A DNA stretch of 64,000 nucleotides, taken from positions 6,688 to 70,687 of IMG/VR virus record IMGVR_UViG_2904200584_000016; one strand, written 5' to 3'. The position numbers and the translations under genes are program-made. This document shows, piece after piece, positions 14,746 through 59,947 of the stretch. Source of the DNA: a virus. Its lineage: Duplodnaviria > Caudoviricetes. The notes under the pieces were generated by a model, which was given only the letters and a program-made list of their open reading frames with translations, was not told the DNA's origin and searched no databases. Each line of letters opens with the position of its first letter. Positions within the stretch are counted from its first letter, which is position 1.

Positions 14746-14805
14746 ATAATTTAAGTAAATAAAATTCAACTTTTAAGTTGATATAAAACAATAGGAGGAT
14801 TAAAA

Positions 14806-15417
14806 ATGAAAAAAATATTATTATTTGAAGGTGCTGGAATGGATATTTATGAAGAGGGTTCAGATGTTGGAAATCATAGAATTAGAACCGCTTTTATAAA
14901 TGGTAATGGAGATAAAATATATTTAGAGCTAGAAGGAAATATACAGAATTGTAAAATTTCAAAAAGATTTGGGTGGTATACACATATTGACCATTGTTTT
15001 AACATTAGTATGTCGACTGATGAAAATGTTTCAAGCATAAAATTGAATAATACATTTTTCAATGGCTATTCAAAAAGTGACTTAACAAAATATATAAACA
15101 AAAATTTTAATTGTAAGTTTGACACTATAGAGGTTTTAGACTGGATGGAAGGCTACAGAGTGCATGGGAATAGAAATGAATACAATTTGATGGACGACCA
15201 TGAGTTGAACAGAAAAAGAACTATAGCAAGAAATAAAGCTTATGAAAAAATAGATAAAGAAATAAGAGAAAAATTAGGAGAAAAATATTCTAAAATAAGT
15301 CTTTACTCTATGGATGAGGACTCTATAACTATTAGATGTTATACATATGAAAAAGATTTATATAAAATAGGCATGAGTGAAGATAATAGATTATTAAAAA
15401 TACCAGTTAATTATTAG
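14806..15417 (+). CDS. Hypothetical protein (LFEGAG...RIRTAF N-terminus)
   Basis: ORF with AGGAGG RBS. Confidence 0.7.
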   Translation: MKKILLFEGAGMDIYEEGSDVGNHRIRTAFINGNGDKIYLELEGNIQNCKISKRFGWYTHIDHCFNISMSTDENVSSIKLNNTFFNGYSKSDLTKYINKNFNCKFDTIEVLDWMEGYRVHGNRNEYNLMDDHELNRKRTIARNKAYEKIDKEIREKLGEKYSKISLYSMDEDSITIRCYTYEKDLYKIGMSEDNRLLKIPVNY

Positions 15418-15497
15418 ATATAGTCAAATATTTAAAAACAATAGGTTAGACGTTAAAATAAATAAAATTAATTATTAATATAAATGGAGGAAGAAAA

Positions 15498-15799
15498 ATG
15501 GAAAGAACATATAGAACAAAAGAAGAAACAATTAAATATTTTAAAACAATCGCATCTAGTTACAAGAAAGATGCAGATATAAATAATAACAAAGTAGCAA
15601 AGGGGAATCCAAGGTGTTTGAGTTGGTAGCACTTGAGTTGGAAAGAACACATAAAACAAAAGAGGAAACAGTTAAACGCTTTAAACAATTAGCGTTTGAA
15701 TATGAAAGATATTCATATAGAAATGATGATAAAATAGCAAATGGAAAGGCAGAAGCTTATGAATTAGCAGCTTTTCAGATAGAAAGAAATATGAAATAA
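15498..15799 (+). pseudogene. Two-repeat small protein with frameshift near 15601-15608
   Basis: ERTYRTKEETIKYFK... in one frame and ERTHKTKEETVKRFK... in the next; one base missing at AAGGGGAATCC. Confidence 0.6.
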
Positions 15800-16061
15800 A
15801 TATTCAAATAAAATATTAATTTTAATATAACAGGGAGGTTTGATTACTATGATAATATCAGCATGGCAAAATAATAATTCTAAAAAAGTTTTAATAGAAG
15901 TAAAAAAAGATAAAAAAAATATAGATGTTTTAATAGCATATACTAATAAAATAAAAGGTAAAGATATGACGATGATACAATCTTGGATACTTGAAGAAGT
16001 AAATAATACAAAAAATAATGGTTATGGCATATATGAATTAATATAATTGGAGGGAAATAAA

Positions 16062-58400: not shown

Positions 58401-58558
58401 AAGCTATTTTTGAGGATAATAAAATTGATATTTATGACTTAGTTTATTTAAAATCAACTAAAGAGAAAGCTAAAAGTAAAAAAGTAGATGAAAAATGGAT
58501 TAAGAGTAATACAGAAACAGAATGGTGGATACAAGAATATTGGAAAGTAGAAAATTAA
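55487..58558 (+). CDS. dnaE: DNA polymerase III alpha subunit (PHP domain)
   Basis: YHSH, TEHG, ANDSH, GRGSA, PDID, YSFNASHS. Confidence 0.92.
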   Translation: MRYNNYHSHKIYSNIRSLDVITKPQQYIDRAIKLGQNTYFTTEHGYQGNVYEAKTLCDEYKLKMIIGAEFYYVNDINEKDRGNYHLIVIAKNNDGYKQINKALSLANKNGYYYKPRIDEKILFEIFKPGDVVITTACVAGILKLENREELILKLKNYFKNNFFLEVQSHPHKTQALHNKDVLELSNKYNIDIIHANDSHYIYPEESKYRTKFLKAKGINYPEEDGFILDYPNSEDIFKRYEKQNVLTKQEVERALKNTLIFDECEEITLINDDIKLPSISKNPNKELKEILNKEWLEKRKNIPKNRWNEYLDAIRYEFDIIEKTHMEDYFIIDYKIVQRAKQEYNGLLTKTGRGSAPSFIITNLLGLTEIDRLNAPVPLFPTRFMSVERILSAKSLPDIDLNAEDAEPFIQATRDLLGEENCAWMISYKPLQDASAFRLWCKANDMKLSEYDEVAKNLDKYTNDVFWKDVIKESKVFVGVVESVSFSPCSMLIYDKPIDEEVGLLKTKDGVCCNIDGYYCDKYKYLKNDYLTVKVWSLIRKTCELANISIPTIKELNILLDAKTYGIYKDKLTCTINQVDSDYATNLASKYRISSVAETSAFVASIRPGFASLLDNFINRESYTTNVKELDILLEDSYHYLMYQESIMKYLIWLGIEESESYDIINKIKKKRFKEKELKELHIKLKNNWIKKVGTENNFEDTWQVVNDAASYSFNASHSLSYAYDSLYCAYLKSHYPLEYYTVAFNLYNEDTERTRKLTDEIEYFSIKLENPKFRFSKSEYFFNRNTNSIYKGIESIKFLNSDIGEYLYSLKDNKYNSFLELLIDLKGYINSKQLSILIKLDFFEEFGKSKKLLKIYDIYNLVYSKKQFKKDNLPCNINTMRKYSNKETEKIFKEVDTKELCSYLESQIENTDIPTNEKIQAHFEFVGSCNIKDSNSNPRYCLVIDIDTKYSPKVTLYNINSGNTKIFKVSKAIFEDNKIDIYDLVYLKSTKEKAKSKKVDEKWIKSNTETEWWIQEYWKVEN

Positions 58559-59228
58559 AAATATGACCCCATATATGACATTCTAAGGCCGTATATAAAT
58601 GATAGCTTGTGTTTATACCGTGCAGTCTTAAAATGGCGTATACAAGGTCGGTGAAAGGTAGTGATTTCAATACTTATAGACGAACAAAGACATCGTGATT
58701 TACTAGAGAAAAACAGAGAATTAAATACTAAAATAGATGAATTAAATGAAGAAATACTATTTTTAAAAGAAGAGAATAAAGAGTATGAAGAAGTTTTGGA
58801 GAAGTGGAAAAATGTAAAAGAAGAAATTAAATCCGCATATGAAATTAGAAGAAGATTAAATAGAAAACATGGAAAGTTAGAAAAGATATGGCGTAAAATC
58901 GAGGATTTATAATGAATACAAATAAAATATATGAGAAAAAAGAATATATTATTATTAAATCTAAAAATGGATATATTGTTTACAATACAAATAAAAAATT
59001 TGAAGAAGGTCATACTCATTTAAAAAGTTATAACGCTGCTAAAACAGCTATAGATTTAGTTATTAAGAGAAGAATTCCTAGAAGTTATTCTATTTATTTT
59101 CTTACAAGTTTGATGAGAATATCTAATGATGTACAATATATAAAACATATAAGCGATATTGTATATATAAGAAATAATAAAGGACTAAAAGAAAAATATA
59201 TAAATTCTAAAAATATTAAAAAAAACTA

Positions 59229-59284
59229 TTGAGAACATAGAAGGTATATGATATACTATGGATATAGTTAAAACAGAGAAGGTA
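59229..59284 (+). promoter_or_regulatory. Promoter TTGAGA-17-TATACT with two shared operators
   Basis: GAACATAGAAGGTA (59233) and AAACAGAGAAGGTA (59271). Confidence 0.7.
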
Positions 59285-59947
59285 AAAAAGGGGGGGTGAA
59301 TAAAGATGTTAATAGAAGGAACTAAAATAAGATTAATGAAAGAAATACAAGGTTTTGAGATGTTAAAAATAGGAGATATATTTGTCATTACATCTGTGGG
59401 AAGCAATGGAGATATACATTTTAAAACAGATTATGGGATGGGATTCATGAATTATAGTGAATTAAAAAAATATTTTGAAGTTGCAATAGAGACTAAGAAA
59501 AAAGAACATATTTGGAGTGAATGGAAAACTACAACTGTACTTGAGACAAATAAGACTTGTAAGTATAGAACAAATGGAAAGAAAGTAGAAGTTAGAATGG
59601 GAGATTTTAAAGCATCAGCTACTTGCCACGGTTCAGATGAGTTTGATTGCAATAAAGGTATTAAGTTATGTCTGGCAAGAATTGAAGTTAAAAAAGCAAA
59701 GAAACAGGTGAATTTAATATTAGATGAAATAAATAATAAATAAATTTAGGAGGACTAAAAATGAGTTGCAAACTTAAAGAAATATGTGAGAATAAAAATA
59801 GAGATTGTGATTATTGTTGTTATAATCCAAATGCATATTTAGAAGATGCTTTTGAATGGAATGGGGAAGGAAAAGAACCATCTAATGAAGAATTAGATGA
59901 TGCTCTTGTAGAATAAATAAGTATTTAAAATTATCATTTTAATATGA

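Follow-up and report, generated by a model that had tools for sequence, protein, structure and literature searches.

A short dyad motif, TAAAA-N6-TTTTAA, recurs at gene junctions throughout most of a 64,000-nucleotide stretch of phage DNA (bases 6688-70687 of the 70.7-kb IMG/VR record IMGVR_UViG_2904200584_000016, whose completeness is estimated at 53%), referred to below as the window. This motif is a real, lineage-specific cis element of the phiCD211-like plasmid prophages of C. difficile, and their sister lineages are without it. As for its role, we tentatively favor, with less than even confidence and on sequence grounds, a putative site for a dimeric phage protein, which would punctuate the early operons and would serve, passively, as a joint between mosaic modules, in a manner resembling the promoter-early stem-loops (PeSLs) of T4-type phages.

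Among the temperate phages known from C. difficile, the phiCD211-like elements are the largest, and they are maintained as plasmids. To our knowledge, almost nothing is known about the control of their 70-kb early arm or about the reason for its mosaicism. In phiCD211, the structural and lysis genes are found on one strand (~9-57 kb), while replication genes, nucleotide-metabolism genes and small genes without known function are found on the opposite strand (~65-131 kb); the window from ~10 to 64 kb is the counterpart of this second, early arm. The window matches the C. difficile plasmid-prophages phiCD211/phiCDIF1296T, AR1086-1, LIBA6276, LIBA2945, ES-S-0107-01 and pCD1602_4, and the identity to phiCD211-like relatives is 86-98%. 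As this homology is found only in patches that cover 20-73% of each query, the group should be considered strongly mosaic.

Occurrence and anatomy of the motif

An earlier note on this stretch, made from the sequence alone, had listed 14 exact copies of the motif as seen by eye. All 14 were recovered on the + strand of the window, every one of them at a gene junction (Table 1). On both strands together the pattern is matched 23 times, as 9 of the 14 copies match again on the - strand, shifted one base to the left. Dinucleotide shuffles of the window (n = 100) gave a mean of 2.56 matches over both strands and a maximum of 7, such that none of the 100 reached 23; the note's rough estimate of one chance copy per window agrees with this mean, which amounts to about one per strand. 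Ten of the copies are wholly non-coding and the remaining four (42892, 48641, 53507 and 55456) touch only the TAA stop of the upstream open reading frame (ORF). Indeed, the note had already named 48641, 53507, 55456 and the near copy 45924 as supplying an upstream stop codon, and overlaps with TAA were found at all four, as well as at 42892. The scan against a Markov background that the note had proposed bears out the enrichment, with 14 copies in the 8.2-8.9 kb of early-arm intergenic DNA, as compared to 0.26-0.35 expected from models of order 1-3 trained on the window's own intergenic DNA (8.9 kb). The spacers of the 14 copies are all different. Three further near copies listed in the note (44960, 45924 and 47446) proved to be decayed forms of sites that are intact in relatives, altered by duplication of 9 nt, by a single substitution and by loss of 1 nt from the spacer, respectively. 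No copy was found by the window scan in the immunity/immediate-early region (1-14.7 kb).

An equal frequency in coding regions or in host intergenic DNA was among the outcomes that the note had regarded as refuting its claim. None of the 14 copies falls within the coding sequence of the + strand ORFs (42,156 bases). In one 4.8-Mb C. difficile assembly, scanned on both strands, 156 matches were found, as compared to 158 for a backwards control pattern, corresponding to ~1/11 of the window density; it should be noted that this assembly itself carries a related phage. By comparison, between 10 and 21 sense copies were counted in each of the close relatives examined. The early arm of phiCD211 (71 kb) has 20 such copies, 19 of them in annotated gaps, and its late arm (60.7 kb) has 4. 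Sense copies number 16-21 in each of four more complete phiCD211-like genomes and 14-19 in five relatives from IMG/VR, of which two are near-complete and three about half-length, with 0-3 matches to the control pattern in both sets. Overall, nine close-relative loci contain 75 copies in 169 kb, while fourteen distant loci (DnaE 55-66% identical; GC 24-27%, the same GC content as the close loci) contain 8 in 272 kb, and phage c-st gave counts of 7 and 8 in 186 kb.

The distant relatives that are without the motif present repeated intergenic units of their own at similar junctions, including directly before dnaE. In one clade (L035, L036 and L039; e.g., L035:2495-2560 and 14040-14110), the unit is PeSL-like and consists of a short stem-loop followed by a TTGACT-17-TATAAT promoter, with 5-8 copies per locus. 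In another (L024, L025 and L037; e.g., L024:13045-13100), a conserved 13-nt box is followed by an 11-nt gap and a TG-extended -10-like box beside the ribosome-binding site.

What is read in the motif is its sequence, in a fixed geometry, rather than a hairpin as such, because its spacing is strict, its arms are conserved, variants are few, the spacer does not covary, the fold is marginal and no Rfam family matches it. Its best symmetric form is the dyad TTAAAAY-N4-RTTTTAA, in which the core, TAAAA-N6-TTTTA, is its own reverse complement. This core occurs 15 times in the window's early arm, while the same arms at spacings of N4, N5, N7 and N8 occur 2, 1, 3 and 2 times, respectively. Among 33 orthologous variants, the mismatches per position number 0.6 in the ten arm positions, 4.4 in the spacer and 4.15 in the right flank, such that conservation of the arms exceeds that of the spacer ~7-fold. 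No conservation is seen in the sequence outside the arms, leaving an element of 17-18 bp with AT-only arms of 5-7 bp. In five genomes, 74 distinct contexts were counted for the exact core, as compared to 1-25 for each variant with a single mismatch and 0-2 for double variants with G/C compensation, and covariation of the spacer pairs (5,10), (6,9) and (7,8) did not exceed that of shuffles (P = 0.07-0.9). Isolated 18-mers fold as RNA with 0 to -2.6 kcal/mol, and the probability of arm pairing in context ranges from 0.00 to 0.90, being below 0.25 at 8 of the 14 sites. A scan of the whole window against Rfam 15, on both strands, gave 0 matches at the gathering score.

The earlier note had also stressed that all copies share one orientation. 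This is only partly meaningful, as the core is its own reverse complement, and the genes of the arm all lie on one strand. What does hold is a residual asymmetry in A and T: an A follows the right arm in 14/15 and 20/21 copies, while a T precedes the left arm in only 9/15 and 11/21; likewise, position 6 is T in 12/15 and 17/21 copies, as compared to 6/15 and 8/21 at the mirror position. Part of this asymmetry may reflect the composition of the coding strand, which is rich in G and poor in C, together with the stop codons upstream. At the two sites with perfect 7-bp arms (39073 and 59926), the 4-nt center is found in both orientations among close relatives. Such inverted centers would be the flip-flop expected of occasional hairpin-mediated template switching, which suggests that these two palindromes may sometimes pair as hairpins in vivo.

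Gene junctions and mosaicism

At the junctions, the motif is wedged between the upstream stop codon and the downstream Shine-Dalgarno (SD) sequence. The distance from stop to motif is 0-15 nt at 11 of the 14 sites. When 78 unique sites were considered, an SD-like sequence was seen to begin 0-10 nt after the motif at 50 (0-3 nt at 30 and 7-8 nt at 16), and the start codon to lie 10-24 nt after it at 47. Two sites are exceptions, 22512, which is followed by a terminator-like hairpin, and 16624, which is followed by a spacer of ~190 nt, and phiCD211 has two copies 7 bp apart with nothing between them. Segments between motifs measure 0.28-9.8 kb and contain from 1 to ~12 ORFs, each with its own SD sequence. 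The note's description of the motif as marking the boundaries of accessory genes is therefore right as to location and too narrow as to the genes, as conserved genes such as dnaE (55456) are flanked as well.

Table 1 Positions of the motif copies and of the features bounded by or close to them, in window coordinates.
Feature	Position	Strand	Remarks
Motif	14760..14776	+	Spacer TTCAAC; fully intergenic; same 17-mer with 2 left and 3 right flank classes in relatives
Motif	15809..15825	+	Spacer TATTAA; 3 left flanks in relatives; homology to ES-S-0107-01 and pCD1602_4 starts at 15806 and 15809
Motif	16624..16640	+	Spacer TTATAT; then ~190 nt non-coding, no ribosome-binding site directly after
Motif	22512..22528	+	Spacer TCGTAG; 74 nt 3' of Doc-like toxin gene; terminator-like hairpin (GC stem, T run) directly after; homology to AR1086-1 and pCD1602_4 starts at 22496
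Motif	32287..32303	+	Spacer TCAAGA; homology to three relatives starts at 32284-32286
Motif	35598..35614	+	Spacer CAATAA; left edge of 3.45-kb cassette; homology to phiCD211 and ES-S-0107-01 ends at 35615
Motif	39073..39089	+	Spacer CAAATG; 7-bp arms; spacer inverted (CATTTG) in phiCD211 and two IMG/VR relatives
Motif	42892..42908	+	Spacer TGTTTC; a 46-aa ORF ends with its TAA
Decayed copy	44960..44985	+	9-nt duplication in spacer; intact copies in relatives have spacer CAACAG
Decayed copy	45924..45940	+	T>A in right arm; ORF 45429-45926 ends with its TAA; intact, with same spacer, in phiCD211, AR1086-1, ES-S-0107-01, pCD1602_4 and other relatives
Decayed copy	47446..47461	+	5-nt spacer (1-nt deletion); intact orthologue with similar flanks in ES-S-0107-01
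Motif	48641..48657	+	Spacer TCTTAA; gives upstream stop; same 17-mer with 4 left and 3 right flank classes
Motif	52019..52035	+	Spacer GTATTA; SD from next base; homology to two relatives starts at 52009 and 52017
Motif	53507..53523	+	Spacer TCATGG; gives upstream stop; left edge of methyltransferase cassette; homology ends at 53527
Motif	55180..55196	+	Spacer TGTCAG; SD adjoins; 4 left and 2 right flank classes
Motif	55456..55472	+	Spacer TTTGTT; gives upstream stop; 14 nt before dnaE start; identical in 12 relatives
Motif	59926..59942	+	Spacer TTATCA; 7-bp arms; spacer inverted (TGATAA) in two relatives
Motif-bounded block	35615..39063	+	3.45 kb, five ORFs; missing in phiCD211 and ES-S-0107-01
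Methyltransferase cassette	53524..55179	+	1.65 kb between two motifs; cytosine-5 DNA methyltransferase-like
Tyrosine-recombinase-like ORF	22622..23572	+	316 aa, divergent; only recombinase candidate in the window's motif-bearing arm

Comparison with four relatives yielded 73 distinct breakpoint clusters in the 14-64 kb region, of which 11 lie within 25 bp of a motif, as compared to 1.35 expected at random positions. Nonetheless, breakpoints fall at gene junctions in general, and those junctions that carry the motif do not stand out significantly, with a breakpoint at 10 of 14 as opposed to 42 of 82 other junctions (Fisher P = 0.13). Among 34 window segments that are without homology in some relative, 26 run from junction to junction; a motif is found at both ends of 3 of these (0.51 expected, P = 0.016), at one end of 7 and at neither end of 16. 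The note's link between the motif and gene shuffling thus survives in part: the excess of nearby clusters, the three motif-to-motif cassettes and one junction that falls within two copies support it, while the comparison of junctions does not. At most motif junctions, the edge of a homology block is close by: blocks that begin there do so 0-16 bp ahead of the motif, and those that stop there extend 0-4 bp past it. In a set of 15 genomes or loci, identical 17-mers, with the spacer counted in, are seen beside varied neighbors, with 12 spacer families being distributed over 26 left and 26 right flank classes. As the two classes are equal in number, the motif travels with neither neighbor, and the possibilities that it moves as the promoter of the downstream gene or as the terminator of the upstream gene were rejected on these numbers.

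Two motif-bounded segments are informative in different ways. In phiCD211 and ES-S-0107-01, from which the 3.45-kb block is missing, a single motif is retained, preceded by the left flank of 35598 and having the spacer of 39073 as well as its right flank. The 9 nt common to both copies contain the junction, with a subject overlap of 28 bp. Where the methyltransferase cassette is missing, as in most relatives (among them phiCD211, AR1086-1 and several from IMG/VR), both motifs are instead intact, 7 bp apart and with no gene between them, and this event was therefore not copy-by-copy recombination.

Several other features of these regions were observed. Within the 3.45-kb cassette, the ORF at 35638-36675 contains short tandem repeats (CAGGA/GGAAA words), which dominated an unbiased gapped-word search. 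The methyltransferase cassette ORF (53524-55136) appears to be frameshifted, with an FxGxG-type motif in one frame and the PC-motif and the rest in another. The nrdD-nrdG block (40148-42780) is found ~27 kb away in ES-S-0107-01, behind a promoter-like region of its own; 35 bp are shared at the junction, where a small conserved gene begins, and the motif is present at neither end of the moved block. A 674-bp block encoding an antitoxin-like protein and the Doc-like toxin (21822-22496) is absent from AR1086-1 and pCD1602_4, its right end lying 16 bp before motif 22512. At 20310-20500, three degenerate copies of a ~29-nt repeat with AGATTAACTA are spaced ~66 bp apart, at the place where a CRISPR array is annotated in phiCD211.

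Recognizable sigma-A-type promoters are located away from the motif, in longer gaps at 11.6-13.2, 17.3-18.7, 39.56-39.60 and 59.23-59.26 kb. The last two (39555-39600 and 59225-59265) are near-identical (TTGAGA, 17 nt, TG-extended -10), are followed by similar leaders and probably serve as the actual promoters of the long early operons. A promoter-pattern scan of 42-61 kb returned 129 promoter-like sites, as compared to 149 in shuffles. On the other side of the divergence of transcription, where the sign of the GC skew switches (~9-10 kb; the early arm is at +0.2 to +0.5 throughout), positions 1-9 kb of the window contain, on the opposite strand, several genes that include a ParM-like and a sigma-like one. 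The sigma-like protein (3770-5212, - strand, 480 aa) matches a PHROG sigma factor family with E = 4e-139 and gives only weak region-4-type matches in Pfam and NCBIfam, while the gene at 7061-8053 (- strand) encodes an actin-like, ParM-type partition protein. Together, the two would fit a plasmid prophage with its own late-gene factor. Ten proteins encoded downstream of the motif were searched, yielding one DNA-ligase fragment and otherwise either no match or matches of no known function; no regulator was found among these ten.

RNA data were considered for positions 42001-62000. Two raw-read runs (X10 and X12) contain only 78 and 44 partial reads, respectively, with no real coverage, and the phage is thus absent from them. 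Two runs of RNA-library contigs (X1 and X4) do contain relatives, and one X4 contig also has the joined form without the methyltransferase cassette, although it should be considered that such contigs show neither RNA ends nor strand; no start or end points of molecules were listed for the region.

Candidate roles of the motif

In the reading that we favor, a phage-encoded dimeric protein would recognize the pair of AT arms, which are spaced by one turn of the double-stranded DNA helix, and the bound sites would punctuate or silence long early operons as operators, roadblocks or shut-off sites. Such a mechanism would have its closest functional precedents in the dispersed operators or roadblocks of temperate phages and plasmids, such as the mycobacteriophage stoperators or the operators of plasmid prophage P1. 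A dimer is proposed because the motif is a dyad with fixed spacing, invariant arms and a free spacer, and because structural compensation is not seen. The distance of ~11-12 bp between the half-site centers is, moreover, the size typical of helix-turn-helix dimer operators. The sites lie between stop codon and SD sequence at ~15-21 junctions of the early/replication arm. As the motif alone is held constant where the neighboring genes are replaced, it would form a seam between mosaic modules, at which module homology starts and stops, and two copies may occasionally recombine, like the PeSLs of T4-like phages. Most simply, this seam role would be a by-product of the selection that keeps the motif. 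As an alternative to a shuffling site, the earlier note had suggested a repeated protein-binding or RNA-processing signal, and it is the first half of this suggestion that strict spacing, invariant arms, the free spacer and the lack of compensated variants would favor; the second half is weighed below.

A number of points weigh against the dimeric-protein reading and should be kept in mind. The binder is hypothetical, the raw-read RNA runs are without the phage and the contigs cannot show RNA ends. The immunity/immediate-early region is devoid of the motif, while true stoperators are also found at the early promoter, and the palindromes seen in the sigma-A-type promoters of that region (1-14.7 kb) differ from the motif. 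The motif abuts the SD sequence (within 0-10 nt at 50 of 78 sites), a proximity that a DNA roadblock does not need and that would suit an RNA or a promoter role equally well. The strand asymmetry leaves a residue, and the promoter-like repeats of the sister clades at the same junctions, including before dnaE, would by analogy favor a promoter. Finally, as 3 of the 17 window copies are decayed, single sites are dispensable.

The motif could instead be a phage-specific (middle-class) promoter, at which an early phage factor would redirect the host polymerase, with the TAAAAT left arm as a -10-like element and transcription starting in or just after the right arm to give very short leaders. We consider this unlikely, although the position fits (start codon 10-24 nt on at 47/78 sites), the motif is confined to one temporal arm that begins after immediate-early genes with canonical TTGACA/TATAAT promoters, and no obvious sigma-A promoter is seen from ~39.6 to 59.2 kb. 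Sister clades also place clade-specific promoter-like repeats at the same junctions (TTGACT-17-TATAAT, or a TG-extended -10 with an upstream box). However, no -35 signal was found in any of three registers (16-18 bp spacing), the mean number of TTGACA matches being 2.1-2.9 as compared to a background of 2.64, and a leader ahead of the SD sequence could be accommodated in one register only. A promoter, moreover, leaves the dyad and the strict pairing of the arms unexplained, would fire into the terminator-like hairpin at 22512 and fits poorly with the two phiCD211 copies that are 7 bp apart. The DxDGD signature of phage RNA polymerases was found in no window ORF, and the sigma-like gene is located with the late-gene arm. 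Somewhat less probable again is a signal at the RNA level in polycistronic early transcripts, whether a weak AU hairpin or sequence bound by a protein beside the SD, as with the translational operators that are the targets of T4 RegA, or a site processed by an endonuclease. Placement on the sense strand between cistrons, often with the stop codon and with the SD 0-3 nt (30/78) or 7-8 nt (16/78) away, the strand asymmetry and the free, loop-like spacer would all be in keeping with such a signal. On the other hand, the hairpin is marginal in energy and often poorly paired in context, compensated or wobble variants and covariation beyond the arms are not seen, Rfam offers no family, and 22512 precedes a terminator far from any ribosome-binding site. 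RNA-library contigs also cross three motif sites unbroken, a weak point as contigs cannot show ends and may derive from DNA.

A dedicated site for cassette exchange is more improbable still. Here, a phage recombinase, such as the product of ORF 22622-23572, which lies 94 nt downstream of 22512, would use the inverted arms, with the 6-bp spacer between them, as its substrate, and the distinct spacers, all 14 of which differ in the window, would keep exchanges in register; this is the strongest version of the note's integron-like idea. This agrees with the form of the motif, with the same 17-mer being found beside many different neighbors, with the excess of motif-to-motif cassettes (3 versus 0.51 expected), with the clean excision or insertion of the 3.45-kb block, whose junction lies inside the motif, and with the flipped spacers at two sites; copies share only 11-13 of 17 nt, which is too little for ordinary homologous recombination. 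Yet the conserved arms of 5-7 bp fall far below the 11-13 bp of known tyrosine-recombinase core sites, breakpoints are not significantly commoner at motif junctions, non-motif junctions exchange equally well (e.g., the nrdDG block in ES-S-0107-01) and absence of the methyltransferase cassette leaves two intact motifs rather than one hybrid. The spacer also evolves as fast as the flanks, and flush boundaries would arise as well if breaks were random and selection then retained those with undamaged genes and motif. As for the ORF itself, it matches a PHROG integrase family (E = 1.4e-17) and scores 26 bits against a cut-off of 220 with the NCBIfam XerA/integron-integrase model; no Pfam match was obtained for it, and a PDB sequence search gave only chance matches. 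We would put little faith in the motif being the target of a dedicated recombination system, possibly that of ORF 22622-23572, with the short inverted arms as recognition sites and with spacers that behave like heterospecific lox spacers. If it were so, co-infecting phiCD211-like phages would swap cassettes in register without scrambling gene order, by means of an integron-like cassette-exchange device built into the phage genome.

Known AT-rich signals were also compared with the motif. The CodY box, the ComK box (A4-N5-T4), the C. difficile cre site and the IHF consensus were each rejected on the spacing or the order of their A/T tracts. A type I restriction target is similar in its bipartite form, but would not explain the intergenic enrichment, and was likewise rejected.

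Searches of the open literature on phiCD211/phiCDIF1296T, among them a term search of the text of PMC5786514, gave no description of the motif, with supplements and subscription journals being outside the scope of these searches. A 17-bp signal under clear purifying selection at ~20 junctions in every member of the lineage gives experiments a direct point of entry. Through it, the protein that reads the motif should become accessible and the temporal program or the silencing of the prophage easier to define, and it offers a test of whether short regulatory punctuation serves as module-exchange seams outside of T4-like phages.

Comparison with known systems

Integron attC sites are ~57-141 bp long, have conserved outer core sites, are folded as single strands and function with a specific IntI integrase, attI and the promoter Pc. 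The window resembles an integron in that co-oriented genes lie between imperfect inverted repeats with a variable center and in that some genes are present or absent exactly between sites. The motif, however, is only 17-18 bp long, with TAAAA/TTTTA arms and no attC-type boxes. No IntI-type integrase was found in the arm, its sole recombinase-like ORF (at 26 bits) being located in the middle of the series of motifs and not at its head, and the segments, with their 1 to ~12 ORFs and SD sequences, do not follow the pattern of one, mostly promoterless, ORF per cassette. Tyrosine-recombinase core sites (lox/FRT/dif) have inverted arms of 11-13 bp around a crossover spacer of 6-8 bp; the spacer of the motif fits in length (strictly 6, or 4 with 7-bp arms), while its arms are too short. 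With these differences, and with P = 0.13 at the junctions, the integron-like or tyrosine-recombinase crossover site proposed in the earlier note is not supported in that form.

PeSL cassettes were described in T4-type phages by Arbiol et al. 2010 (PMC2839356). Like the motif, a PeSL recurs between genes and fills the gap between the stop codon on one side and the SD sequence on the other, is concentrated where the genome is early and plastic, and is also found beside the DNA polymerase gene. PeSLs mark the boundaries of insertions, deletions and replacements between close relatives; for the motif, the corresponding figures are mixed, with 11 of 73 breakpoint clusters nearby (1.35 expected), 3 motif-to-motif segments (0.51 expected) and one copy-by-copy junction, but 10/14 versus 42/82 by junction. 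A PeSL differs in containing strong sigma-70 consensus promoters and stable, often G/C-rich, terminator stem-loops, and in being long enough for homologous recombination, while the motif measures 17-18 bp and its copies share the arms only. Indeed, the motif has no sigma-70 -35/-10 boxes, as its TTGACA matches are at background, and no stable terminator stem-loop (0 to -2.6 kcal/mol). PeSL cassettes of T4-type phages are reportedly also the subject of work by Comeau et al. from 2014 (PMC4122927).

Stoperators of Cluster A mycobacteriophages (Mavrich & Hatfull 2019, PMC6550527; also PMC9283540) are ~20-30 short sites in short intergenic gaps of a temperate phage, with one main orientation relative to transcription, mostly without a promoter and with a lineage-specific consensus, a set of features that the motif resembles in part. 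They differ from the motif, a dyad found in one arm only, in being 13-bp asymmetric sites that are bound by a monomeric immunity repressor, and in being genome-wide with a true operator at the early lytic promoter. In the present case, the ~14-21 dispersed intergenic sites are confined to the early arm, where orientation is inseparable from strand composition as all genes lie on one strand. The 1-14.7 kb region, which carries divergent sigma-A-type promoters and a repressor-like gene (9899-10210), has no copy.

The SAS and ESAS elements of Cluster K mycobacteriophages are said (Pope et al. 2011) to be lineage-specific and co-oriented, to lie a few bases before many gene starts and to have no known function, and ESAS is reportedly an inverted repeat with a variable spacer, as is the motif. 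SAS differs in that it includes the ribosome-binding site and is GC-rich, while the motif lies 5' of the SD sequence and is, in some copies, not followed by a gene start. In the plasmid prophage P1 (C1 repressor) and the plasmid RK2 (KorA/KorB), many short operators are scattered over a large extrachromosomal replicon. These operators overlap or act on recognizable promoters, none of which is evident at motif sites, and those of RK2 are palindromic, as is the motif.

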